IMG/VR virus record: IMGVR_UViG_3300033074_000233 | Span: 1-64,000 of that record | Reading direction: 5' to 3' (one strand) | DNA: 64,000 nt | Source of the DNA: a virus | Taxonomy: Duplodnaviria > Caudoviricetes | Shown: one piece after another, positions 1 through 54,924 of the stretch | Layout of the letters: each line of letters starts with the position of its first letter | How positions within the stretch are numbered: position 1 is the stretch's first letter | The notes under the pieces: generated by a model | Database searches by the model: none | What the model saw: only the letters and a program-made list of their open reading frames with translations | What the model was told of the DNA's origin: nothing | Program-made: the position numbers and the translations under genes

Positions 1-1680
1 AGCCGCACCACAGTAAGAGCAGGTGTAGTTGGTTACCCACGCACCCATACTGTAGGAGTTCATTTCCCCATCGAGGATTTTCTGCGCGATAGTCGGATAT
101 TTCGTTCTATCAATCGCAAGTAGTTCGAGGAGTTTCCATACTTTGCCGTTGCCGAAATGATCCATCTTGCGAAGGAAAGCATCGGCGATGACTCCATAGG
201 CTTTCGTATGGTCTTCATTGCAGTTATGCACTATTACCCCGCCCGCAATGTAAGTATGATCTTCCTCAACCTCAAGGTTGTAGACGGTAGTTTTCGACAC
301 ATTCCACTCGATGGACTTAATCGGGACAAGCAGACAGTCCGGAAGCAGAATAACCTGCGACCTACGCGAGTCACCCGAGGTCTTTATCGGCTTAGTTACG
401 AACAAATAATCTCGTAGGGCATAAGCCTCGGACATATTAAGGCCGAGACAATAAGTATCAGCCTTACGTCCATGCTCTCCAGTAACCCCGTCCATATTTA
501 AAGTAGCAGATAGTCCAAGAGAAGCCATCATATGGAACAGGTCATAAGCAAGACGCTTGCTAGAGGTTCTAGCGCGCATACGCTTTCCTTTGCACGACCC
601 GTCACCACTGATAAACGCACCTATAAAAATCTTGAGGCTCTCTTGGTCCCAGTCTCGTATTTCGCTATGCAATTTCTTCGATGCTGAGTATTCACCAACA
701 AGCCTCTTCATTTGGACAGCGAACTTTGTGTCTCTTACGTGGACACTATAAGTTCCGCCGTTCTCGTTCAAGTGAACAGAATACGCAAGACCTAAGTTGT
801 GTAGCGCGTCTTCCACTTTGTCCTGAAGTGTTTCCTCGTAGAAGGACAAAGTAAAAATTGCTGAAACTATCGCACCGGTCTTATCCTTGCGGAAGGAGCC
901 CTCGGCTGCAAACAGACCTGTTAGGAAGGCATAGTCCGGGTTTATCGACTCTTTACCTGAACTAAAGGTCTTCGGTACGACTAAATAATCACCGCGCGAT
1001 AGTTCTGACAGTGGCAGGTACTCAAACGAGTCTTTAGTCAGGTTTGAACGTACTTTGCGCCCGTCAAGAACCTCTTCCCGTTTTGCTACAAGGAAAGGAT
1101 GGTTAGAGGTAGCCTTGATTGTGGGTAGGCCTAAAGCCTTTATCTTCGAGACTTTTTTGTCCTCGTTAATAAACACCTGAGTAACCTTCTGATAAATCCC
1201 TTTATCAGTCATTACTTGGTCATTTTGGCGTATTTTTCGTATCTTTTTCCAGCCCCTGTCTGTGAGAACAAGAGTTGAACCGTCAAAGCAATGCTCGTAA
1301 TGAACCGGCTTGCCTTTGAAAGTTTTGTACGCTTGCATTCCATCCTCAACGCTGAACTCAACCAGCGATTTGAGCGGGAAAGCCACGCCGTTGCGATTAG
1401 GTAGGTCACTAGGTATAGTAATGACAGGAACGAAAAAGTAATCTCTAATGTCGTTGGAGAGGTCATATTGTTTCGCTGCGAAAGGAAGCCAGTTGGTAAT
1501 GTCCAGTTTTTCGTTTACTTTGGTCTTGTCTGCATAGGCAGGCGACACCAGAAGTTGGTCTTTGGAAGCGTGGATGGTCTTACGCTTCAATTCACGGTGT
1601 ACGTCAATAACACCGGGCGTAAAGCCTGCGGCGTCACAGTACACGGCGAAACGGTTTTCATTGATTCGTTGACGTGCCAT
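1..1680 (-). CDS. Putative prohead (capsid maturation) protease containing a LAGLIDADG intein; 3' end runs off the window
   Basis: Not in the ORF track; translated by hand from ATG at 1680 (GGAG SD upstream). MARQRINENR...PNRNGVAFP...FKGKPVHYEH/[intein]/CNEDHTKAYGVI...KILDGEMNSYSMGAWVGNYTCSYCG. His and SMG motifs and position just downstream of the portal fit a phage prohead serine protease. Confidence 0.75.
   Translation of the reverse strand, partial: MARQRINENRFAVYCDAAGFTPGVIDVHRELKRKTIHASKDQLLVSPAYADKTKVNEKLDITNWLPFAAKQYDLSNDIRDYFFVPVITIPSDLPNRNGVAFPLKSLVEFSVEDGMQAYKTFKGKPVHYEHCFDGSTLVLTDRGWKKIRKIRQNDQVMTDKGIYQKVTQVFINEDKKVSKIKALGLPTIKATSNHPFLVAKREEVLDGRKVRSNLTKDSFEYLPLSELSRGDYLVVPKTFSSGKESINPDYAFLTGLFAAEGSFRKDKTGAIVSAIFTLSFYEETLQDKVEDALHNLGLAYSVHLNENGGTYSVHVRDTKFAVQMKRLVGEYSASKKLHSEIRDWDQESLKIFIGAFISGDGSCKGKRMRARTSSKRLAYDLFHMMASLGLSATLNMDGVTGEHGRKADTYCLGLNMSEAYALRDYLFVTKPIKTSGDSRRSQVILLPDCLLVPIKSIEWNVSKTTVYNLEVEEDHTYIAGGVIVHNCNEDHTKAYGVIADAFLRKMDHFGNGKVWKLLELLAIDRTKYPTIAQKILDGEMNSYSMGAWVTNYTCSYCGAA
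223..1290 (-). mobile_element. Contiguous intein (356 aa) with LAGLIDADG homing endonuclease
   Basis: Starts CFDGSTLVLTDRG; block B ATSNHPF; LAGLIDADG motifs FLTGLFAAEG and FIGAFISGDG; ends VYNLEVEEDHTYIAGGVIVHN followed by +1 Cys. Confidence 0.95.
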
Positions 1681-4489: not shown

Positions 4490-6100
4490 TCAATTACGAG
4501 AAAACGTAGAACCTCCGCCACCTCCACCACCCATTACTGCGGCAATTCCCTGTCCACGGGCAGAAGATACCTGTGATCCAGAGAAGCCACCCCCAGCAAC
4601 AATAGCAGCCAGGCCTCCACCTCCGCTGCGTTTCCTTGTCTGTAGGAAATTAAGTACGATCTCATTATCCAACAGAAAGGTCGAGGCCAATACCACAGCA
4701 CGGAATAAATCATCCGTTCTATTTGTTCCCTTCACTACGCTGCGCTTGGAATCCTGTACGGTCAAGCATTGCATTAGCAAGTGGGCCGAAGGCTTGAAGT
4801 CGAAACTATTCGGATAGCCTTCACTGACTGGGCCAATGATTTGTTCCACCGGCATTTCCAGTTTCGGGAAGAATATACGCTCGCCTTCAAGGTAGGAACG
4901 GAACAAAAGGAAATCATCGTACTTGACGGAGTATTGTTCCGTGACCAAGTTCAATTTAACGTCCTTCTTTTTCTTACCGTGAATATCCGTTGTGTCGATG
5001 CCCTTGTTGAAGTCTTCTTCCAATTTATGCAACAGGAATAGGCTGTTCCAACGGTCGGCTACTAGATAACGGACGTTGAAGGCTTTAATCATTTCCTCAA
5101 TACAGAACTTAACCACGGCACTATGGTTAATTACGTTCTCGCCTTTCTTGGGAATAATCTCCATAATGGCGCTGTAAACCACGTTCTTATCTTCGCGGTG
5201 ACCGACAGCGATTGCGAAACTGTTGTCGGAGAATCCAGCGTCGATTGCCATGACGGACGCAGGCTGACTGGACATTGGGTAACACTTAACTTTGGCCGCC
5301 CGGAATATCTTTCCGTCCGCGTTACGTCTGTGGATATATTCATAGTCTACCTTGTTCTTAACTAGAGTGAAGGCCTTGTTGACAACTTCCTCGTTGCCAA
5401 TGAAGGGTGCTGCGGTGAGCGGAGGTTCAGCGCCATAGTCACGCGCAGCCGTCAGCGGACTACTGCTAAAGGCATTGGCGATCTCAGGATGCTTACGTGG
5501 GAACTTCGGGTTGATTTCCCAAGTAGGTGCGTGAACCGCAAGGATGGTTTTGCTATGCCTGTTGTTAGTCACCAACTGCATGATTTTATCTTGCACGTCG
5601 GATGGACTGGATACGTTCAGGGCGTAGGCAGAAGGCAGGTTGTTGTAACCCTGTTTCATCAGGTCGTAAGACGCGCCGCGAACGGTTAGCAGTGAACGGT
5701 CTAACGCCGTGTAAATGCCGTCTGCCGAAATGGTGATCTTGCCTGAGGCGTTCGCACTGGCATCGAACCAACCAAGTTCGTCGATTGCGTAGATATAACG
5801 GGTACGACCACGCAGGGTACGTTGGTTAGGAACGGACGGATACAGCATCAGTTTCCGGTGACGGTAACTAATGTAGGTGTCCATCTGCTTGTACAGTTCC
5901 TCACCGTACTTGTTGTTGTAGTGCTTCATCAGTTTGTGGTATTCACAGTTATGAACCTGAATACCATTGGCATAATAATTATGGTGGTCCTTTACCTCTA
6001 TGTCATAGACGTGCCTAGTACCTACGGGTTTTATGGAAGTCACCCTAGACACCCGTATAGGCTTACCGTCAATGATAACCTCTTGTACACTAGCATTCAT
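4490..6100 (-). CDS. terL: Terminase large subunit, C-terminal fragment, preceded by split-intein C-half
   Basis: First 51 aa are IntC (VYDIEVKDHHNYYANGIQVHN/C); then LRGRT, Walker B YAIDELGWF, motif III SSP, RNase H-type nuclease acidic motifs MAIDAG, ADRW, TDDLFRA. Confidence 0.9.
   Translation of the reverse strand: MNASVQEVIIDGKPIRVSRVTSIKPVGTRHVYDIEVKDHHNYYANGIQVHNCEYHKLMKHYNNKYGEELYKQMDTYISYRHRKLMLYPSVPNQRTLRGRTRYIYAIDELGWFDASANASGKITISADGIYTALDRSLLTVRGASYDLMKQGYNNLPSAYALNVSSPSDVQDKIMQLVTNNRHSKTILAVHAPTWEINPKFPRKHPEIANAFSSSPLTAARDYGAEPPLTAAPFIGNEEVVNKAFTLVKNKVDYEYIHRRNADGKIFRAAKVKCYPMSSQPASVMAIDAGFSDNSFAIAVGHREDKNVVYSAIMEIIPKKGENVINHSAVVKFCIEEMIKAFNVRYLVADRWNSLFLLHKLEEDFNKGIDTTDIHGKKKKDVKLNLVTEQYSVKYDDFLLFRSYLEGERIFFPKLEMPVEQIIGPVSEGYPNSFDFKPSAHLLMQCLTVQDSKRSVVKGTNRTDDLFRAVVLASTFLLDNEIVLNFLQTRKRSGGGGLAAIVAGGGFSGSQVSSARGQGIAAVMGGGGGGGSTFSRN
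5948..6100 (-). mobile_element. Split intein C-half (IntC, 51 aa) of terminase
   Basis: Blocks F and G ending His-Asn; +1 Cys at 5945-5947. Confidence 0.95.
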
Positions 6101-7283
6101 TTAGGCGCTCTCCTTTTTCTCCCATAATAAGGAGAGTGAATTTGTAGCCTTGTTTTCTGCAGGCCTGACGTTTCGCTCCTAAGGATTTAGCAACACTTGC
6201 GGTATAGGAACTCTTAACTTCTATTATTCGATTTTGAGAAACTACAAATATGTCAGGATGATAAATACGATCCTTACCTTTCCAGGTATATTTAATCGTA
6301 GGCATGTCTGACTCAAATCCACAACGTATGTCCTTAGGCTTTACGCCTTTTGTTTTTATTATGTAGTCAAGAGCCTGCGGCTCATAGCCCTGTACTTGTA
6401 CCTTTCTCTTTCCAAGATTATAGGCCTTAAAGGTGTAAGCACTTTTTAGGTTCTTCTCTAGGATCTCTTTATTCTGTAAGGCGTAGTCAACGCCGTAGCG
6501 TTCGCGCATAGTTGCTCGGCTTTTTGCCTTAACCTCAGGTCTTTGGTTGCTGTACTCTACTCCGTATTTACACATAGAGTTAAACCGCATTTTATCCGGA
6601 GCACACTTAGGACAGCCAGACTTTTTTAGTAGGTTTCCGGGCAAAACTTTCCAGGTATGACTACATACAAGGCATTTTGCCTTAGTGTATTTGTTCATGC
6701 CTGGGTAGCCACCAACAAGACAAATTTTCCTTTTCTTTAGTTTTGCCCTTCTATAAAAAATAGCCTCAGGCATTAGTCTAGCCTTAGATATCCTTTCACC
6801 CACAACGCACACGCAACTTATATTTCCGGTTATTAGTGCTTTTGGGCTAGCTCCTTTCTCCTTGCCACAGAGTAGGCAGGCTACACGAAAACGAGAGTCC
6901 GTTTTCTTAGATATAAGGCGAAAGTTTTTATTTTTCTTGAGTGCCTTAGTTACAGATACAAAGGTAGCGTTATGCCGCTCAATCCAGCCTTTACTCTGCG
7001 TAACCCTATAAACACCGGTGCATTTTAAGGAACAAGTCTCATTAAACGGACTGTCTGGATTGTCGCGTCTGTTAGTAGAAAGTTTCGTAACCTTTTTTCC
7101 GCATACTTTACACTCCGGATAGCCATTATCAACTATATAAGCAGCAGCCTTCAAAGGCAGAGTTTTACATAAACTTTCTAGGCGTTTGGCTACCTTCTCC
7201 TCAAGAAAAGGTCTTATGGCCTTGAGGCTTGGAGTACGTCCTGTAGTTGTACGCTGTTCTTCGAGTGCAGAGATAAGAGTCAT
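6090..7283 (-). CDS. Free-standing putative homing endonuclease (Zn ribbons, KYGV-type repeats, PD-(D/E)XK domain) between the terminase halves
   Basis: Multiple CxxC; KYGVEY/RYGVDY repeats; C-terminal VQGYE...YHPDIF...IIEVKS; AT-rich codon use unlike flanking genes. Confidence 0.85.
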   Translation of the reverse strand: MTLISALEEQRTTTGRTPSLKAIRPFLEEKVAKRLESLCKTLPLKAAAYIVDNGYPECKVCGKKVTKLSTNRRDNPDSPFNETCSLKCTGVYRVTQSKGWIERHNATFVSVTKALKKNKNFRLISKKTDSRFRVACLLCGKEKGASPKALITGNISCVCVVGERISKARLMPEAIFYRRAKLKKRKICLVGGYPGMNKYTKAKCLVCSHTWKVLPGNLLKKSGCPKCAPDKMRFNSMCKYGVEYSNQRPEVKAKSRATMRERYGVDYALQNKEILEKNLKSAYTFKAYNLGKRKVQVQGYEPQALDYIIKTKGVKPKDIRCGFESDMPTIKYTWKGKDRIYHPDIFVVSQNRIIEVKSSYTASVAKSLGAKRQACRKQGYKFTLLIMGEKGERLNEC

Positions 7284-7295
7284 ATTGATACCTCA

Positions 7296-7325
7296 CGTTG
7301 TTACACTTAAATTAGTGTAACAACG
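7296..7325 (-). promoter_or_regulatory. Perfect 12-bp inverted repeat enclosing the promoter-like motif, directly upstream of the endonuclease SD
   Basis: cgttgttacact-taaatt-agtgtaacaacg; motif at 7306-7317; SD GAGGT at 7290-7294. Confidence 0.75.
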
Positions 7326-7331
7326 CAAAGT

Positions 7332-8429
7332 TTACAAGGTAACAACTAAGTCATCTTCCGTTAGTTCTGAGACTTTTTTCCAGATAACCGTAGTCCTATC
7401 CTCAGATAAACACCGAACTTTGTGTTCGTCTGTCGCCACTAGCACCTGACCCGAGTCTAAAACTATTTCTTTGCACTCCTGTACCCCATTATCGAACAGG
7501 TGCTCTACTTTATTTGAGCCTTCGAAGGTAGCAACGCGCATACCAGGCTTAATGTATTCAATCGCTAGGGTGGTACCATCTTCTATAGTTATCTGAGTTC
7601 CTTCTGCAATGCAATACCACGTACTGTCGGCAATAGCATCAACAATCGGTGTCCACAACAGTTCCACTGCACCAGCAAAGTTCAGCGAAACGAACGTAGC
7701 CGTCAAGGTCACGTTAGATAGGCCGGTGAACATTTCTGCTGGACGCTGTAGTTTGAGGTATCTGTGGTTGATGTAGGCAACCAAGAAAGAAGTGAACAAG
7801 GACTTACCAGAACGCTGACCCGCACAAAAGGCCAACTCGGAGTAAGGCTTGAGGAGTTTCTTTTTGACAAACTCGCGCTTGGTTCCTTTGCACTTAGGAC
7901 ATACTCCGTGTTCCATGAGTTGGACAACATCAGGGAAGTTCTTCGCCTGAAAGCCAACGGGAATGTTACGAATGTCCTTCATCACCTTGCCCTTAGTACA
8001 AACAGGGCAATACTCGCCAAATAGTTTCAGCGCAATCCACATCTGTCTAGCAAAGGGCTTAATACCAGTGAAGCCCCACGTCCGATCAAAGCAAAAAGCC
8101 CAAAAATTGGGCATAGTTGGGATATCTCTGTCGTCCACTTTCAAGTCTTTTGGAACCGGGGTCTCATCATCCAAGACCTCATCCAGCACCTTCTCTAGGT
8201 CTAGTTCCTTTCTCGCTAGTTCCTTGCTATCCTTCAAGGCGAAAGGTGAAGGTGCGTATCCTGTCGTAGAATCAATTTCTCCGCCATCCTTGAACGGAAT
8301 ACCGTTAGCATCCACGATTGAGATTTTGTGGGCACCCATAGGCGACCACTTTTCACACTTGTATTCGGCTCTTTTATTTGCGTAAGTACACTTCAGGAAC
8401 TTACCACAAGATAGGCAACTGTCACTCAT
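7332..8429 (-). CDS. terL: Terminase large subunit, N-terminal fragment, ending in split-intein N-half
   Basis: Adenine-binding PFARQ, Walker A AGQRSGKS, Zn-finger inserts; last 93 aa are IntN (CIAEGTQIT...ATDEHKV...) then TAA. Confidence 0.9.
   Translation of the reverse strand: MSDSCLSCGKFLKCTYANKRAEYKCEKWSPMGAHKISIVDANGIPFKDGGEIDSTTGYAPSPFALKDSKELARKELDLEKVLDEVLDDETPVPKDLKVDDRDIPTMPNFWAFCFDRTWGFTGIKPFARQMWIALKLFGEYCPVCTKGKVMKDIRNIPVGFQAKNFPDVVQLMEHGVCPKCKGTKREFVKKKLLKPYSELAFCAGQRSGKSLFTSFLVAYINHRYLKLQRPAEMFTGLSNVTLTATFVSLNFAGAVELLWTPIVDAIADSTWYCIAEGTQITIEDGTTLAIEYIKPGMRVATFEGSNKVEHLFDNGVQECKEIVLDSGQVLVATDEHKVRCLSEDRTTVIWKKVSELTEDDLVVTL
7335..7613 (-). mobile_element. Split intein N-half (IntN, 93 aa) of terminase
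   Basis: Block A CIAEGTQI; block B TDEH; acidic end SELTEDDLVVTL. Confidence 0.95.
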
Positions 8430-16147: not shown

Positions 16148-16552
16148 TTATTGGCAATGTCTAATACGGGCGTCTGCGAACTTGGCCGTTTTAATTATCT
16201 CAGAGTAGTAAAGCATATCCTGAGATTCTCCGAAGACTACTACATCTGGTTTTGAGTGTCCTCGCAGGGTGTAACGAGACCCCGAGTCAGAGCCGTCTAT
16301 AAAAATACAGTGTACGGATACTGGGGCTGTTTGTCTATAAAGATCGAAGTTTGATTTACTGTTTGCTATAACGAAAACTATATTTGGGGGTACCTGATTT
16401 TTACCCCGTAGAGTTTCCAAGAGGCCCGAAGTTCCGAAACGAATCAGGATGTAGCCTACGAACAGTGCTGCTAACAAGACAGGTATAGCATAGTAGGTAG
16501 TAACCATAGTATCAAAATTCATCACACTTTCTCCTAGTAGTTTGTGTATCAC
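16148..16552 (-). CDS. Hypothetical membrane-anchored protein
   Basis: Hydrophobic segment YAIPVLLAALFVGYILI. Confidence 0.6.
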   Translation of the reverse strand: MIHKLLGESVMNFDTMVTTYYAIPVLLAALFVGYILIRFGTSGLLETLRGKNQVPPNIVFVIANSKSNFDLYRQTAPVSVHCIFIDGSDSGSRYTLRGHSKPDVVVFGESQDMLYYSEIIKTAKFADARIRHCQ

Positions 16553-17334
16553 TTTACAGTTTCACGCACGGTAATGCGGGACAAATATCCTTCAAGAATG
16601 GAGACAGCCATCAGGGGACCTGCATCACCTGTGTACTTCTGTTTCCACTTTCTCCACTTGGATACCAGATAGATCGGGTGCAAAATCAACGTACCGTCTA
16701 CGTGCAATGGAGCCATGCTATAGACGAAGGCGCCAGAGTCCTTCACGTTGTCATACAGGGTCTCAGCGTCACTCCAGAAGAGGACGTAGTATTTGCCCTT
16801 GTAGGCCAAGTGAAAATAGATATCCTTGTTCTTTGAAGCCAGCACAATGCGGCTACGCGATGACATGGTTAGGTACGCGAGCATAAGGCTCCACGAACCT
16901 TCAAGTTTGTCGATAATCCTTTTCTTGACCAGTAGTGCGTAGTTAGCCTCAACGTCATTCAGGTCTGGGTGCTTGACACTATTCAACTTCACTAGGAGTT
17001 TGCTAGGTGCAAATCCTGGCGCGTCGATTTCCTTGTCATTCATCCCAGTAAATGCCGAGACCTCATCGTTGTTGGATATAGAGCCGTTAAGCCAGGTTAC
17101 CGCAGTGCTTCCACGCGAAGGAACTGCTATGGAATACATTTCGTCGCTCTGGCTACTGGCCAAAAGGAAAACACCAGGACTCAAGTCGGTAATCTCACCG
17201 AGTTGTTCCGTTTTGACTAGACTCTTGTTAAGCGAGCAGTGGGTAATCCGCTTGTCGCCATAAACGCTCTCCAGCAGCGACCTTAGGTCGGTGAGGTCGT
17301 CTGGCTTACTGTGAAGAATGAGACAGCCTAACAT
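16549..17334 (-). CDS. Degenerate class II glutamine amidotransferase (Ntn-hydrolase)-like protein
   Basis: WLNGSISN (cf. HNGxIxN) and KLEGSWSL (cf. LEGxFAL); lacks N-terminal catalytic Cys. Confidence 0.5.
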   Translation of the reverse strand: MLGCLILHSKPDDLTDLRSLLESVYGDKRITHCSLNKSLVKTEQLGEITDLSPGVFLLASSQSDEMYSIAVPSRGSTAVTWLNGSISNNDEVSAFTGMNDKEIDAPGFAPSKLLVKLNSVKHPDLNDVEANYALLVKKRIIDKLEGSWSLMLAYLTMSSRSRIVLASKNKDIYFHLAYKGKYYVLFWSDAETLYDNVKDSGAFVYSMAPLHVDGTLILHPIYLVSKWRKWKQKYTGDAGPLMAVSILEGYLSRITVRETVK

Positions 17335-17341
17335 AGATCAC

Positions 17342-19273
17342 CTATGATTCGTAGTCGCTGAGGATTGGGTAATTTTCATCCAAATAGGTCTTCAACTTGG
17401 AGTTGTTCCAGTCACGATAGACCTGCTTGTACGCCGTGTCATAATCAATCTGCGGATACAGCGTACAGTGGTCCTTCAGTGTACGCTTAATGCACTCATC
17501 CAGACTGAATGCTTTACCCTTGAACGGACCCTTAGGCCCATGTATCTCCTCATCAAATCCTTTGAGCGACCAGTCCCATTTGTACGTCTTGTCCTGTGAC
17601 GCACCAAACTCCATTTCAATCTCACACGGCACCGTGAACTTCAGGTCAAAGTGCTTGTCGTAGTAGCCCTGAACACCCATAGTTGCACACCACTGCAGAA
17701 TCTGGGCAGTAGCCAGAGCCATATCAAAGGTGGCTGAGGTGAAGATGGAATCATGCACCATCACCTCAATACCAATAGGGCAGTGCGTGTCTTCGGTCGT
17801 TAGCCTTTTCAGTTTCAACAGGTACTCATAAATGTGCTGCTCAAACAGGCGAGCACCTGTATGACCAAAGTCTGCGCCCATGCCTTGAATCGGAGAGTTC
17901 TTGGCTCGACGATCCATTGCACCTGCGATACCTTTGTCACCAGTCAAGTGGCCGAACAAGTGACGACGACGGCCCAAGGCAGACTTGGCAAACAAGTGCT
18001 TACGGCCAAATTCGGCTGTCCAGTTCAACCAATCCGATGCTACACGGAATCGTTTGAAGAATCTGTCATACAGGTCTTTGGCAAAGTCGGCGGACTTCCT
18101 CAGGTCTTTGGCCAAAGTCTTATAGGACTTACCGTAAATTACACCGAACGCTACACCTTTTACTGCATCACGCATTTCGTCCGTGATCTGGGAGAAGTCC
18201 ACACCAAAGAAGAAATTCACGTTTATACGGTGAATGTCACCCTTGTTACCCAGTTCTATTGCAAACTTTGCCAGGCCTGTCTTAGCCCACTTCTGACGGA
18301 GTTTACGACCAATAGCAAATACACCAGCGAGAACCGTGTCACCGCTGATGATGGACCATACACGAACTTCGTGTGCGCTATAGTCCATCTTAATGATAAT
18401 GCACCCAGGCGGCGGTGCGAACGTGCGCTTAATGTGCTTCGCCATCTCACCGCGTTGAGGTACCTGCTGCAACGAGGGATCACTACTATTGGATCGTCCA
18501 GACAACACCTTAAAGAAGCCATAATTAGGACGCATACGACCGTCGATCTTACCGTCATCGGAGTCGATCTTCTTGGCGAAAGCATCCACGTACGAGGACT
18601 TGATCTTCTTGGCCTTCTCCAGCGTATTGAGTAGGGCTACTTCTGGAACTTCCTCGTACTTCTTCTTAAAGAACTTACCCAGACTTGGCTTCTTGGACTT
18701 CTTGCTTAGTTCAGGCTCAAGATCGAGCACGTCCACATACATAACAATCTTGTGCGCGGGCTTGCTTATATCGAAGATTCTAGGTGCCTTGTTGAACAAT
18801 CCTTTTCCAACAGGTACGTTCATATCGGCCAGCAGGATTTTATTGGCTTTAGCCGCAGCGTCTGTTGAGTTAAGTTGGTTCGTTATATCCTGAATAGCCT
18901 TTGAGATTGGAGACTCGCGTGTCTTCAAATAGGATAGGTACTTGCGGTCCATTGCAACACCACGTTGTTCCATACTGGCGAATACATGGATGTTGTTGGA
19001 CATTTGTCCAACGGAAACACGAATATGATCCTTAGAATAGGACTGGGTAACACCTTGATCACGGTATACCAGGTTCTTGGCACGCTCACGCTGCTTGTCA
19101 TGTATCGCAAGAATTGCCTGCGTATCCATAGCACAGTTATGTACTAAAACGGGGTTCTCACTAATTTCAGTAGAGACAAAGAGGTTATGATTATCCTCTA
19201 CTTCTATGTCACAGACCGTGGGTGTGTTCCCAAGGTTCGTGATACGTTTAATAACTACCGTTGCGGTGCCCAT
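17342..19273 (-). CDS. polA: Family A DNA polymerase, C-terminal fragment, preceded by split-intein C-half
   Basis: IntC (CDIEVEDNHNLFV...VLVHN/C); SGRSNSSDPSLQQVP, motif A MDYSAHEVR, motif B RDAVKGVAFGVIYG, NSPIQG, motif C VHDSI. SD GAGGT lies inside the antisense endonuclease ORF. Confidence 0.93.
   Translation of the reverse strand: MGTATVVIKRITNLGNTPTVCDIEVEDNHNLFVSTEISENPVLVHNCAMDTQAILAIHDKQRERAKNLVYRDQGVTQSYSKDHIRVSVGQMSNNIHVFASMEQRGVAMDRKYLSYLKTRESPISKAIQDITNQLNSTDAAAKANKILLADMNVPVGKGLFNKAPRIFDISKPAHKIVMYVDVLDLEPELSKKSKKPSLGKFFKKKYEEVPEVALLNTLEKAKKIKSSYVDAFAKKIDSDDGKIDGRMRPNYGFFKVLSGRSNSSDPSLQQVPQRGEMAKHIKRTFAPPPGCIIIKMDYSAHEVRVWSIISGDTVLAGVFAIGRKLRQKWAKTGLAKFAIELGNKGDIHRINVNFFFGVDFSQITDEMRDAVKGVAFGVIYGKSYKTLAKDLRKSADFAKDLYDRFFKRFRVASDWLNWTAEFGRKHLFAKSALGRRRHLFGHLTGDKGIAGAMDRRAKNSPIQGMGADFGHTGARLFEQHIYEYLLKLKRLTTEDTHCPIGIEVMVHDSIFTSATFDMALATAQILQWCATMGVQGYYDKHFDLKFTVPCEIEMEFGASQDKTYKWDWSLKGFDEEIHGPKGPFKGKAFSLDECIKRTLKDHCTLYPQIDYDTAYKQVYRDWNNSKLKTYLDENYPILSDYES
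19136..19273 (-). mobile_element. Split intein C-half (IntC, 46 aa) of DNA polymerase
   Basis: Ends VLVHN; +1 Cys at 19133-19135. Confidence 0.93.
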
Positions 19274-20350
19274 ATGAAAATTACCTCAGAACAAAAGAAG
19301 TTCCTGTCTCAGTATCAGAATAAGTCGAAAATAAACTGGTACGAAATTAAGCGAGTGTACCCTGAAATACATGACACTTTACAAGACAAAGCCCAGAAGA
19401 AAAAAGTAAGGCCAAACAAATTACTGTATATTCTTGTATTTGGACACCCCAAATGTGCAGGTACTAACTGTGAAAGCACTAATTTAGGATTCAAGAACTT
19501 TAAGCGGGGTTTCGATAAGTTCTGCTCGAAGAAGTGCGCTAATAGTTCGCCTGAGTCTAATGCTAAGCGTGAGCAGACCTTCCTAAAAAACTACGGTGTT
19601 ACTAACCCAGGTAAGTGCGAGAAAATCAAAAGGCAGCGTCGAAAAACTATGGTGAAAAGGTACGGTGTCGAATACACGGCTCAGTCCCCGAAACTGCGTA
19701 AGAAAATGGAAAACACCTGTTTAGAGAACTACGGCGTGACCTCTCCTATGCAGTCTAGCGTGGTTAGAAAACGCTGCGAGGCTACGTCAATAGAACGCTA
19801 CGGAGTTGCAAGCCCAATGTCAGATCCAAGTGTCCAAGCAAAGTACAAAGAAACCTGCCGAAAAAAGTATGGAGTAGAACATCCGTTTCAGGATCGTGAG
19901 GTTTTTGAGAAGCAACAGAAGTCAGGTTTCAGCCTAAAGAAGATAACTATAGCAGGAAAGAAATACCAACTTAGAGGCTATGAGTCTGATGCCGTTATAT
20001 ATCTGCATAAGAATCTTAGAGTAAAGCCAGAGCATATACTAACTACATCGAAAGATGGGCTTCCAACGATACGATGGACAGACAAGAAGGGCAAAGGTCA
20101 TGTGTATCATCCTGATCTTAAAGTTAAGGTTAAAGGAAAGTGGTTCTTGGTTGAGGTAAAGAGCGATTACACCTTAGGACTCCGCAGTGACGGTAGCAAG
20201 ACCATGTTTTACGTTGCAAGACGCAAAGCCCAAGCGTGTATTGACGCTGGTTATAGGTTTAAGTTACTCCTAGTGCAGAAAGGAAAGGTCTCTGTTGTTT
20301 CTGACTTCCACGAAACTAAACGAAAGGACCTTATATCACGGTACTGTTAA
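19274..20350 (+). CDS. Antisense free-standing putative homing endonuclease between the polymerase halves
   Basis: Only convincing plus-strand gene. Five YGV repeats; C-terminal LRGYE...YHPDL...LVEVKS; paralogue of 6090-7283. Start taken as ATG 19274 (ORF is open from 19187). Confidence 0.85.
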   Translation: MKITSEQKKFLSQYQNKSKINWYEIKRVYPEIHDTLQDKAQKKKVRPNKLLYILVFGHPKCAGTNCESTNLGFKNFKRGFDKFCSKKCANSSPESNAKREQTFLKNYGVTNPGKCEKIKRQRRKTMVKRYGVEYTAQSPKLRKKMENTCLENYGVTSPMQSSVVRKRCEATSIERYGVASPMSDPSVQAKYKETCRKKYGVEHPFQDREVFEKQQKSGFSLKKITIAGKKYQLRGYESDAVIYLHKNLRVKPEHILTTSKDGLPTIRWTDKKGKGHVYHPDLKVKVKGKWFLVEVKSDYTLGLRSDGSKTMFYVARRKAQACIDAGYRFKLLLVQKGKVSVVSDFHETKRKDLISRYC

Positions 20351-21877
20351 TACCTTAATTTTCTCTCCGTCAATCAGGTCCTTAACGCGGACGTATTCTT
20401 GTCGTGTCTCTGACCAAACTTTGTGGTCCTCTGTAAGACGTATCGTACCCCCCTCGTACTCGATCTCAAACATATCCTGAGTAGTCGTGTGTGTAGACAC
20501 GTTTAGACAGTTTTTGTACTCGGTCTTGTTCGTTTCGTGGTTGAATGAAAGGACTTTGCCATAAGCATCTTTATCTAGAACAAAGTCTTTCAGTTTAACT
20601 TTTCCCGTCTCCGTTACGACGTAGGCTTCTGGATCTATGCAGTAGTCTTGGAAGTCCGGATCAAATAGATCAGTTGCTTCCATGTTGCCCCGATCCTTCT
20701 TGGAGAAGCCTGCGGTATAGTAAAAATCGTTACCGTAGGCACAGGTTACCTGTGCCAATCCACCCATAGGGTACTCAGTGTCTTCTAGGAACCGTAGGGT
20801 TTCATCGTGGGCATGCTCGCCTGCTTGAACGTCATACACTGGCCAGTACATGAACGGAATACCTAGAGCCTGTTTGACCTGTGTTATGTCAAACTTTGCG
20901 TTGAAGGCGATCAGGTATTTCTTGTAGTTCATATCCACCTTACGCATGAAGAACTCGCGTAGGCGTTTCTGTATGTATGCAATTTCCTTAGGCGAGAAAG
21001 GGGTATCCTTGTGTAGAATAGGAACCACAAAGCCCTTGTCCTTGTCAACAGAGAACTGGACGATCAGGAGTTTGTTTTTGATGCGGTTCAGGTTTGCTGT
21101 TTCTGTATCGAAGGCAATACGATCAGCGTTTTCGATAATCTCCATCATACGGTCGAACTTCTTGATGGTGTCGATCAGGTGTGCCTTAACCTGAACGTCA
21201 ATCGCCCATGGAAGTTTGCCGTGGATGAGAGAGGAGATATTGCGAGAGAAATAGCCGAGAACGTAAGCGGCCTTGAGCACACTTTCGTTATCGTTGTCAT
21301 CTTCCTCGTCAAGATTCTTAGGCGGTGTCAGGGAATCAGCGTAGTCGATTGTTGAACAGACCTTACGCTTCTTACCTCCTAATTCAACCTTGTGTACCCA
21401 GCCCATCTTGCAAATGGCATTCTCAACCTTGTGATTGAGTAGAAACTTGGTTGGATTATCGCCTACCAAGAGAATATGGGTTGGGTCATACTTCTCGATG
21501 AAGCCTCTTACACGCTTGGCTGCTGTGGAATGCGACTTCGCTCTGTCATCCGGGTCCAGATGGTAGTTCTTGAAGAAATTGAAGTTGACCGCTGCGAAGG
21601 CGACGTCCTTTTCCTCAAGACCATAGGGTTCGGCTATGGACTCTGCGTACTCATAGCAGTTCTGGAGTGCAGTAAGGGATACACCAGAGAGGAGAGCACC
21701 GTTTTTCAGGTCCTCAGTAGATACGTGTTCCAGTACGAACAGGACACGCTTTTTCGCCCGCTTCCAATTCTTCTCAATTGGAAGGGTAAGATTGAATGGC
21801 TTGCAGTCTTTGGAAAGACGAGCCCAGTAATCAGGAACCTCATTCTGAAATGAGATTCTTGCTATCGACTCAAACAT
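20336..21877 (-). CDS. polA: Family A DNA polymerase, N-terminal fragment (UDG-like domain plus 3'-5' exonuclease), ending in split-intein N-half
   Basis: ExoI IAFDTET, ExoII AFNAKFD, ExoIII Tyr right before the intein; last 101 aa are IntN (CIDPEAYVVTETG...LTEDHKV). Confidence 0.9.
   Translation of the reverse strand: MFESIARISFQNEVPDYWARLSKDCKPFNLTLPIEKNWKRAKKRVLFVLEHVSTEDLKNGALLSGVSLTALQNCYEYAESIAEPYGLEEKDVAFAAVNFNFFKNYHLDPDDRAKSHSTAAKRVRGFIEKYDPTHILLVGDNPTKFLLNHKVENAICKMGWVHKVELGGKKRKVCSTIDYADSLTPPKNLDEEDDNDNESVLKAAYVLGYFSRNISSLIHGKLPWAIDVQVKAHLIDTIKKFDRMMEIIENADRIAFDTETANLNRIKNKLLIVQFSVDKDKGFVVPILHKDTPFSPKEIAYIQKRLREFFMRKVDMNYKKYLIAFNAKFDITQVKQALGIPFMYWPVYDVQAGEHAHDETLRFLEDTEYPMGGLAQVTCAYGNDFYYTAGFSKKDRGNMEATDLFDPDFQDYCIDPEAYVVTETGKVKLKDFVLDKDAYGKVLSFNHETNKTEYKNCLNVSTHTTTQDMFEIEYEGGTIRLTEDHKVWSETRQEYVRVKDLIDGEKIKVLTVP
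20339..20641 (-). mobile_element. Split intein N-half (IntN, 101 aa) of DNA polymerase
   Basis: Block A CIDPEAYV; block B TEDH; followed by TGA. Confidence 0.93.
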
Positions 21878-31544: not shown

Positions 31545-32486
31545 TTAAGCGGCGCGATTCTTTTCATAAACACGAATCCTTTTGTATAATTGCTTCTTGG
31601 TCATTACAACAGTCCAACGTTTTTCTAGGTTGTCTTCCCAAGAAACAAGTTGAAGATTTGCAGGATGTGCAATAACTTCGGGTGGAATTTTATGCTCAAA
31701 GCCTTCTTTTATGCCAAATACATGATCTATTTGTAGTGCGCCTTTAACTCCACACTTACCACGTTTTGAGAGTAGTTTCTTTGGCAAATCGTTTTTACCA
31801 AATCTGCTTGTTAATGAATGAACTTTGTTCCTGTATTTGGAAAAGGCCTTTTGATCTTTTACTTGATAGCCCATCTTAACTCTAGCGGCTCGACCTTTTC
31901 TAATAATTTCTGCTCTTACTTTGTCTAGGTGCATTATGTGTTCGACGCCATACTTCGCTAAGAAAGTTGCTTTAGTTTTAGCCCTGGATTTAGCCTTGAA
32001 CTCTTTTGATCTTGACTCGCGTTTTAGCCTGCGCTTTTCATGTACCTCATCTAGGTATGAGGGATTGGATACTCCATACCTCTTTTTCATTCCCTTGATA
32101 CGGGCCTTAGTTAGTTTTTCTTGGTAGTTTGGACCTAACCTTCTTTCCAAGGTTCTTCTTTGGCCGTCTTTTATTTTCTTTATCTCGGACTTTGATTTTG
32201 AAGACCAAGCCTCTCTTACTTTTTCTCGCCAAACATCTTTTACTTTTGAGTTAAGTGTACCACAAGTTCTAGAGCAGTGTTTAATGAAGCCTCGTTCTAG
32301 CCCAAGGAAGTGTGTTTCATTACTACAGCCTTTCCTTGCACACATACCTTCAGTGTCTTTTGCTCTGTATTTTATGTAGTAGTCTCTTACTTTTAGATTG
32401 TGTTCTTTTGATATGTGTATTCCCAATCCATTATAGGTTCTTGACTTGTATCCACAAACCTTGCAGGTACGAATAATAACTATCAT
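31545..32486 (-). CDS. Free-standing HNH homing endonuclease with Zn finger and YGV repeats
   Basis: C2H2-like N-terminus; RYGV/KYGV repeats; C-terminal QIDHVF...HPANLQLVSWEDNLEK; very AT-rich. Confidence 0.8.
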   Translation of the reverse strand: MIVIIRTCKVCGYKSRTYNGLGIHISKEHNLKVRDYYIKYRAKDTEGMCARKGCSNETHFLGLERGFIKHCSRTCGTLNSKVKDVWREKVREAWSSKSKSEIKKIKDGQRRTLERRLGPNYQEKLTKARIKGMKKRYGVSNPSYLDEVHEKRRLKRESRSKEFKAKSRAKTKATFLAKYGVEHIMHLDKVRAEIIRKGRAARVKMGYQVKDQKAFSKYRNKVHSLTSRFGKNDLPKKLLSKRGKCGVKGALQIDHVFGIKEGFEHKIPPEVIAHPANLQLVSWEDNLEKRWTVVMTKKQLYKRIRVYEKNRAA

Positions 32487-53985: not shown

Positions 53986-54924
53986 TTAACTAGATAAGCC
54001 ATTGAGTTCATTGAAGGCTACCTTGAACTTTGTCCATGATAGTTCTGTCCAATTCTTGGGAATTTTGTAGCATTCCGTGCAGGTTCTAGTTTTCCTAGTG
54101 GAAATTTTTGGCATTAACAAGCAGAAGTCGTAGCCAAGTTCACTGCACCTAATAGCCTTACGCCGGTTTGTATAGTACGTTGACTTAACCTTGAACAGCG
54201 TATACGTGGACTTTACTTCTACGATCCGATTAAGGTCTTTTATATAGAGGTCAGGATAATATCTTTTCCAGTGGCCTTTATAGAGGTATCTTATGGTTGG
54301 AATATGCTTGGATAGACCGGCTTCGATTCTATCAGGATTTACCTTTTTTATCTTGGTCAAATACCTTAGGGCTGCATCCTCATAACCTTGAACGAAAAAT
54401 TTCTTTCCACCGAGTTTGATGCGTCTCCTCTCAAAAAAGTTACCTTTTGACCTGTCTGTATTGGAACAGAGCCTATCAAACAGGTCGCTCTGATGCTTAC
54501 TAAGGCTATCTTTTTTGCACTCGGGACACCTGTTGTATCCAGCCTTAGAGGTACAAACGTCAGAAGGTTTCACATCCCAGGAACATGAACACTTCAGGCA
54601 AGTGTGTAGAGAGGCTATTAGCATACCTTTGTAAGGCTCTGCTAATGCAACTTTTTTCCTTTTGCATATTACCGCATACTTGGCCTGCGCTTGAATCGAC
54701 CTAACAGACTCAGGCCCGACATGGGAGCAAGACCTGCATCCACTTCCAGTACGGGTTATGAACGAGGGTTTAGTCTCCCAAGTACGCTCGCAAGTAAGAC
54801 ACTTATGACTACTTGCAACCTTCCAGCCCTCATATTTAATACACCTGATTCCTTTCTTGGCTATGAGGGCCTTGTATTCCTTTTCTCTTTCTGAGCGATC
54901 ATACCTTAGATCGTAATTCGCCAT
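53986..54924 (-). CDS. Free-standing putative homing endonuclease (third PD-(D/E)XK paralogue)
   Basis: Zn ribbons; VQGYE...YYPDLY...IVEVKSTYT; AT-rich; inserted between tail genes. Confidence 0.85.
   Translation of the reverse strand: MANYDLRYDRSEREKEYKALIAKKGIRCIKYEGWKVASSHKCLTCERTWETKPSFITRTGSGCRSCSHVGPESVRSIQAQAKYAVICKRKKVALAEPYKGMLIASLHTCLKCSCSWDVKPSDVCTSKAGYNRCPECKKDSLSKHQSDLFDRLCSNTDRSKGNFFERRRIKLGGKKFFVQGYEDAALRYLTKIKKVNPDRIEAGLSKHIPTIRYLYKGHWKRYYPDLYIKDLNRIVEVKSTYTLFKVKSTYYTNRRKAIRCSELGYDFCLLMPKISTRKTRTCTECYKIPKNWTELSWTKFKVAFNELNGLSS

Follow-up and report, generated by a model that had tools for sequence, protein, structure and literature searches.

A phage family A DNA polymerase gene split within the ExoIII motif by an intein and a reverse-oriented DUF7487 endonuclease gene

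Genes and intein halves at the polymerase locus

The window analyzed here, a stretch of 64,000 nucleotides (nt), is the first 64 kb of the 215,992-base IMG/VR virus record IMGVR_UViG_3300033074_000233, which is approximately 84% complete. Its family A DNA polymerase (PolA) is encoded by two minus-strand genes, each carrying one half of an intein. The N-gene (20336-21877; 513 amino acids, aa) ends with ..DFQDY/CIDPEA..TEDH..LTVP, and the C-gene (17342-19273; 643 aa) begins with MGTAT..VLVHN/CAMD, where the slash denotes the boundary between extein and intein. The 1,062 bases between the halves were non-coding on the minus strand, and the plus strand contained an intact open reading frame (ORF) of 358 aa (19274-20350, plus strand) for a free-standing homing endonuclease of the DUF7487 family. 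The initial annotation described the split intein correctly in every detail but left out this intact antisense gene in the gap.

The 412-aa N-extein (20642-21877, minus strand) comprised the N-terminal region and the 3'-5' exonuclease domain of a family A DNA polymerase, as identified by PF01612 (E 8.6e-8), phrog_17 (DNA polymerase), and alignment with Klenow and T7 gp5. The C-extein (17342-19135, minus strand; 597 aa and the stop codon) comprised the full polymerase domain, based on PF00476 (E 2.3e-49), the alignment, and the coordinates. The exteins were joined by script and aligned using MAFFT with E. coli Pol I, T7 gp5, and four intein-free relatives. ExoI (DxE), ExoII (NxxxD), ExoIII (YxxxD), and motifs A, B, and C of the joined exteins all aligned to the catalytic residues of Klenow. 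On the minus strand, the N-gene encodes ExoI (FDTET, 21098-21112), ExoII (NAKFD, 20888-20902), and the ExoIII Tyr412 (20642-20644), and the C-gene encodes the +1 Cys with the A-M-D of ExoIII (19124-19135), motif A (DYSAHEVR, 18362-18388), motif B (KGVAFGVIYG, 18128-18172), and motif C (VHDS, 17747-17761).

In this alignment, Y412/C413-A-M-D416 fell on Y497-A-A-E-D501 of Klenow, and the insertion point of the intein is immediately after the Tyr of the ExoIII motif Y-x-x-x-D, before the second residue. The exonuclease site is divided between the two genes, with the Tyr, ExoI, and ExoII on the N-gene and the ExoIII Asp on the C-gene. It had been proposed that joining the halves would restore Y-C-A-M-D as the YxxxD motif and that motifs A, B, and C all lie in the C-gene. 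The former was corroborated by the Klenow alignment and by an intein-free allele reading Y-CAMD (P0010, see below), and the latter by the alignment with Klenow and T7 gp5.

The N-terminal intein half (IntN, 101 aa; 20339-20641, minus strand) follows Tyr412 directly. The reading frame, the NCBIfam model intein_Nterm (TIGR01445, residues 413-487 of the N-gene product, 33.2 bits, E 7.7e-8, cut-off 24.5), and a match to the NrdJ-1 intein agreed on its identity; IntN alone aligned with the solved NrdJ-1 split intein (PDB 8ubs) at E 5e-5 over 88 residues, block B included. It contains Cys1 (20639-20641) and the block B residues T482-E-D-H485 (20423-20434) and is followed by the TGA stop codon of the N-gene (20336-20338). 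The C-terminal half (IntC, 46 aa; 19136-19273, minus strand) was likewise recognized from the reading frame and from intein_Cterm (TIGR01443, residues 22-47 of the C-gene product, 18.1 bits, cut-off 15.6), and it was 54% identical to the IntC of two other cassettes (L080 and L092, see below). Its block F reads VCDIEVEDNHNLFV (19175-19216), and its block G reads VLVHN (19136-19150).

The splicing residues of a class 1 intein are complete: Cys1 (Cys413), TxxH, the block-F Asp, the terminal His-Asn, and the +1 Cys. The halves of 101 and 46 aa were together colinear with a 147-aa contiguous mini-intein of an IMG/VR relative (L028), which itself gave no matches in a PDB sequence search. From these features, the PolA halves are one complete class 1 mini-intein that is split at the endonuclease insertion point, and IntN and IntC are predicted to trans-splice the polymerase halves. 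The junction AEY/C..N/CFN of the cyanobacterial DnaE split intein has the same Tyr at position -1 and Cys at position +1. The intein halves could instead act as a non-splicing clasp, merely holding the two polymerase chains together non-covalently. However, all the splicing residues are intact here and kept across cassettes that are 50% divergent, and both halves exceed the cut-offs of the curated intein models; we consider a clasp very improbable.

A Cys before the block-F Asp (V-C-D) was present in all three antisense cassettes described below and absent from L028, whose intein is contiguous. This residue, Cys1, and the +1 Cys would place three cysteines close to the active site, a putative basis for redox sensitivity.

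Intein-free alleles and distribution of the intein family

Clustering at 90% identity grouped the C-gene product with a natural intein-free allele of the polymerase (P0010, from an ENA contig). This allele is 1009 aa long and reads ..DFQNY-CAMDTQ.. at the site. The product spliced in silico from the window was also 1009 aa long, colinear with P0010 without gaps, and 88% identical to it. The exteins of an intein-bearing pair (P0011/P0012) matched P0010 at 96.6% and 99.2% identity. In IntN and IntC, this pair was 100% identical to P0003/P0009, whereas the exteins of these two metagenomic lineages were just 85.7% and 91.3% identical. In another comparison, the intein-bearing P0015 and the intein-free L015/L019 were 97% identical. 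Because the element is present or absent among near-identical hosts and identical elements occur in diverged hosts, the PolA intein bears the signature of a mobile element that homed recently.

Syntenic polymerases without the intein were also observed in L014 (58% identity, site Y-C-A-A-D), L015 (site Y-C-S-A-D), and Vibrio phages GR11A and GR7B (one protein, site Y-G-C-M-D). IntC-like matches in GR11A, GR7B, and Erwinia phage Y3 were dismissed as alignment overhang, as these polymerases are single coding sequences of approximately 1017-1054 aa, an intein-free length. Megablast against 50,697 phage records gave no cultured close relative, and tblastn with IntN gave no PolA intein in cultured phages. 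Just downstream of the polymerase lies the gene for a clamp-like processivity factor. Between the two, within a block conserved in these phages, is a gene for a protein of 255-270 aa (16549-17334, minus strand) with relatives in L014 and L015 and without a Pfam or PHROG match.

The region from ExoII through IntN was searched with HMMER against 1.84 billion representative proteins, with 472 matches. The best 150 of these were sorted by junction pattern and BLAST similarity to the N-extein, from which the site labels of the following clusters derive. Approximately 19 further clusters (<50% mutual identity) contained PolA N-halves that end in IntN directly after the ExoIII Tyr. An intein was found at AGE[Y/F]/C..N/CLDEN in approximately 27 clusters, at PolA motif A (SAHEVR/C; split or contiguous) in approximately 10, and at an xWD/C site in four. 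The split inteins of other clusters occupy three further PolA sites, and the same intein family was also found in DE-box helicases, KxDG ligases, and Cas4-like nucleases. Contiguous mini-inteins at motif A were observed in the IMG/VR relatives L028 and L089. A pattern scan of metagenomes returned two real matches and 20 chance matches. The tree of 115 IntN sequences was too poorly resolved to order the host switches. In a quick tree, one clade (95% SH-aLRT) mixed Cas4-site and PolA ExoIII-site inteins; these two sites have a common Tyr/Cys junction, which hints at intein switching between Cas4 and PolA ExoIII.

Two closely related jumbo-phage polymerases from IMG/VR 3300045988 contigs were found to carry different inteins. 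L027 (4935-9263) contains a LAGLIDADG intein within motif B (VFG/C..SN/SMYGKG), L028 (4935-8363) contains a mini-intein at motif A (SAHEVR/C..HN/CWG), and each lacks the intein of the other.

The split polymerase could also be read as a decaying gene, i.e., a pseudogene broken by nuclease insertion while replication is carried out by another enzyme. As the record is only about 84% complete, the missing part could hold another polymerase. Nevertheless, both halves are long intact ORFs with all the exonuclease and polymerase catalytic motifs, the approximately 19 independent 50%-identity clusters retain the same split architecture intact, and no second DNA polymerase of family A, B, or C was detectable in the 216-kb record. 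We regard decay as extremely unlikely. PolA is probably the replicative enzyme of the phage, and because no other DNA polymerase family was detected in the record, spliced PolA is probably essential to it.

Six inteins were identified in this genome, in the prohead protease, TerL (split), PolA (split), a RecA-like protein, NrdJ, and a protein of unknown function. The terminase gene is a second fractured gene (4490-8429, minus strand), in which the N-half (7332-8429) and the C-half (4490-6100) enclose a DUF7487 endonuclease gene (6090-7283) on the same strand as TerL. The TerL and PolA split-intein pairs are probably orthogonal, because their IntN are just 25% and their IntC 38% identical. The prohead (head maturation) protease ORF (1-1680, minus strand), an unusual intein host, contains a contiguous intein with a LAGLIDADG endonuclease domain. 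Three inteins lie beyond the window, at approximately 111.5-113.0 kb, 116.0-118.7 kb, and 125.8-128.2 kb of the record (L004, L003, and L006); their hosts are a 491-aa protein without a Pfam host domain, a RecA-like protein (with LAGLIDADG), and a class II ribonucleotide reductase, respectively.

The initial annotation further suggested that splicing efficiency might tune fidelity. A pool of unspliced C-fragment would polymerize without proofreading, and the rate or conditions of splicing would set the mutation rate of the phage. The C-extein does constitute an entire polymerase domain, motifs A, B, and C included, and neither half contains the full exonuclease site. The polymerase-only domain of Klenow keeps its activity, which counts in favor of such a switch. 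Splicing could in principle be redox-sensitive, given Cys1, the +1 Cys, and a block-F Cys kept in the three antisense cassettes. The distribution of the element speaks against this suggestion. Near-identical phages dispense with the element (P0010, L014, and L015), and the finding of identical inteins in exteins that have diverged is indicative of a recent, selfish spread. Inteins of this family also split PolA at motif A, a position at which neither half would be functional, and the same cassette was found in an unrelated Cas4-like nuclease. No conserved feature specific to regulation was found. Very rapid splicing has also been reported for natural fractured-gene split inteins (Carvajal-Vallejos 2012, as cited in PMC7090010). 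A fidelity switch is thus highly unlikely in our assessment. Because of the intein-free near relatives, the identical inteins in diverged exteins, the motif-A splits, the Cas4-like host, and the six inteins in one genome, the pattern fits a selfish element that would need no host function.

The antisense endonuclease gene and its junctions

The call of the 358-aa endonuclease gene agreed in two sources, with an upstream ATG at 19187 as a possible alternative start. Its product was assigned to DUF7487 (PF24308, E 2.7e-40) and to phrog_3339 ("homing endonuclease"). It consists of a zinc-ribbon-like motif with four Cys, five helical YGV repeats of 23 aa, and a C-terminal PD-(D/E)xK nuclease domain. 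The four-Cys motif, the 23-aa YGV repeats, and invariant E237, D281, E294, and K296 were common to the homologues. The AlphaFold 2 model of the protein had a pLDDT of 94, and the top Foldseek matches of the C-terminal domain were the PD-(D/E)xK nucleases Cas4 SSO0001, RecU, RecE, and Hjc. The sole match in the profile search was a weak one to T7 endonuclease I, which extended across the PD..ExK core, and a PDB sequence search with the endonuclease gave no match. Kinship of DUF7487 to the Vsr-like I-Bth0305I (3r3p) was considered and set aside, as it was not returned by sequence, profile, or fold searches.

Members of the DUF7487 subfamily with the 10-residue spacing are mostly free-standing. 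Two more DUF7487-related ORFs in the window, both on the minus strand, are apparently free-standing as well (53986-54924 and 31545-32486). For the latter, the match was confined to the repeat region, and the nuclease core was absent from the alignment. No terminal inverted repeats were found around the endonuclease gene between the polymerase halves, and no target-site mimics near it were found in the window. The DUF7487 protein most likely cuts intein-free polymerase alleles at the DNA encoding ExoIII; DUF7487 would thereby gain a testable function and a candidate target site.

At the sequence CATATG (19271-19276), the start codons of the C-gene (minus strand) and of the endonuclease gene (plus strand) abut head to head without a spacer. 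A Shine-Dalgarno-like GAGGT (19283-19287, minus strand), which may serve the C-gene, lies 9 nt upstream of its ATG and is antisense to codons 4-5 of the endonuclease gene (ACC TCA). At the other end, the last IntN codons and stop overlap convergently with the last endonuclease codons and stop over 15 nt, codon on codon (20336-20350). The frames of the polymerase halves in the window are in register across the endonuclease gene. A recently decayed contiguous intein, with its sense frame formerly open across the endonuclease, was nonetheless rejected, as approximately 19 stops intervene and the corresponding frames in L080 are out of register.

The same antisense cassette was also observed at other loci. 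It splits PolA at AGEF/C..N/CLDEN in L092, L098, and L095, with an identical CCATATGAAG junction and TCTGAGGT; the 3' ends in L092 overlap by approximately 44 nt. In L080 (4422-7206), a gene for a Cas4-like PD-(D/E)xK nuclease is split at ..QIKSY/C by the same antisense cassette, in which CATG contains both overlapping start codons and the 3' ends share 18 nt. The sites of such cassettes were PolA ExoIII, PolA AGE/LDEN, and the Cas4-like gene. Among the three antisense cassettes, identity was approximately 50% for the intein and 35-40% for the endonuclease. Identity to the TerL cassette, which belongs to the same genome as the PolA cassette and is sense-oriented, was lower (IntN 25-32%, endonuclease 28-33%).

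Taken together, it is very likely that the polymerase locus is a fractured gene, in which a mobile class 1 mini-intein at ExoIII was split by a reverse-oriented free-standing DUF7487 gene and in which the polymerase is restored by trans-splicing and the element is spread by homing. A free-standing PD-(D/E)xK gene of the DUF7487 family would have inserted in reverse at the usual endonuclease position and thereby separated IntN (101 aa) from IntC (46 aa). The two polymerase halves would be translated separately, and the C-gene would probably be read from a transcript running antisense through the endonuclease gene. IntN and IntC would then associate and trans-splice via a Cys1 thioester, transfer to the +1 Cys, and cyclization of the terminal Asn. 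Joining Y412 to C413 would yield a 1009-aa polymerase with an intact proofreading site. During co-infection, the endonuclease would cut intein-free ExoIII-coding DNA, and repair would copy in the whole cassette.

Two results weigh against this explanation. A PDB sequence search with IntC alone gave no matches. A scan for sigma-70 promoters and terminators showed no enrichment, and no promoter was assigned to the C-gene or to the antisense gene. The sister lineages behind P0003/P0009, P0010, and P0011/P0012 were compared at the protein level.

A further proposal concerns the age and autonomy of the arrangement. IntN, the reversed DUF7487 gene, and IntC may form one old, self-contained cassette, which would move as a unit between catalytic motifs in genes for phage replication and repair. 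It would be recognizable by the CATATG starts, a ribosome-binding site of each gene lying antisense inside the other, and the overlapping stops, and the antisense layout would be functional. We put this forward tentatively and consider it rather doubtful at present. If it were true, endonuclease expression would be inverse to transcription of the host gene, and the nuclease would be low while polymerase is made.

Comparison with known split inteins

On the fractured-gene explanation, natural split inteins would have family A polymerase as an additional host. Inteins, split or contiguous, occupy at least four conserved motifs of PolA in dozens of sequence clusters, which makes PolA an intein hot-spot in jumbo-phage-like viruses. 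The natural split-intein pairs with a Tyr/Cys junction, including two divergent pairs in one genome, could serve as orthogonal tools for protein ligation. The antisense cassette provides a compact case in which each of two genes contains the translation signals of the other. It also offers a testable model of the process by which an intein and a free-standing nuclease merge into a single mobile unit.

Fractured genes were described in ocean metagenomes for gp41-1, NrdJ-1, IMPDH-1, DnaE, NrdA, ligase, and terminase loci, and family A polymerase was not among the eight host enzyme types (Dassa et al. 2009, PMC2677866). The PolA locus resembles them in that a class 1 mini-intein, split where an endonuclease would canonically be located, interrupts a phage enzyme of DNA metabolism and in that a free-standing homing-endonuclease gene separates the halves; its IntN is detectably homologous to that of NrdJ-1. 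In the published loci, the three ORFs share a strand, a spacer of 27-51 nt is present, and the endonucleases are of the GIY-YIG or Vsr-like (EDxHD) type (PMC2677866). The PolA locus differs from them in its host and in its antisense endonuclease gene, the start of which abuts that of the C-gene and the stop of which overlaps the N-gene by 15 nt, with no spacer. Its endonuclease also differs, being a DUF7487 protein with a canonical PD..ExK core (E..HPD..EVK).

Replicative polymerases made from two genes are known from the split inteins of cyanobacterial DnaE and Nanoarchaeum equitans PolB, to which the trans-splicing predicted here would be analogous. In those systems, however, the halves are at distant loci without an endonuclease gene, the polymerases belong to families C and B, and the sites are outside the proofreading motif. 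The jumbo phages MIJ3 and PA5oct have a split PolB with an HNH endonuclease (PMC6892783). As in our case, a jumbo-phage polymerase is fractured by a split intein and an intervening homing-endonuclease ORF, but the polymerase is of family B, the endonuclease is HNH, and no antisense layout is described there. In Aeromonas phages 25 and Aeh1, which are T4-like, the polymerase or NrdA is split by endonuclease genes without inteins (as cited in PMC2677866). These are also phage replication enzymes encoded by two genes around a mobile endonuclease gene; they differ in lacking an intein, and their halves associate non-covalently.

Endonuclease genes on the strand opposite to the intein were reported for non-canonical inteins of actinobacteriophages, in which antisense LAGLIDADG or Vsr-like ORFs were read as invasion by a free-standing endonuclease gene (bioRxiv 10.1101/2025.01.02.630785). 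Those inteins are contiguous, with a sense frame open across the endonuclease, whereas PolA is truly split, with approximately 19 stops in the sense frame; hosts, phage group, and endonuclease family also differ. One survey mentions inteins in bacterial Pol I. In the full-text literature searched, coverage of which is incomplete and gives weak evidence of absence, no split intein in a family A polymerase was described and no paper named DUF7487. Relative to these systems, the PolA locus is best read as a fractured gene with a new host gene and a new layout.

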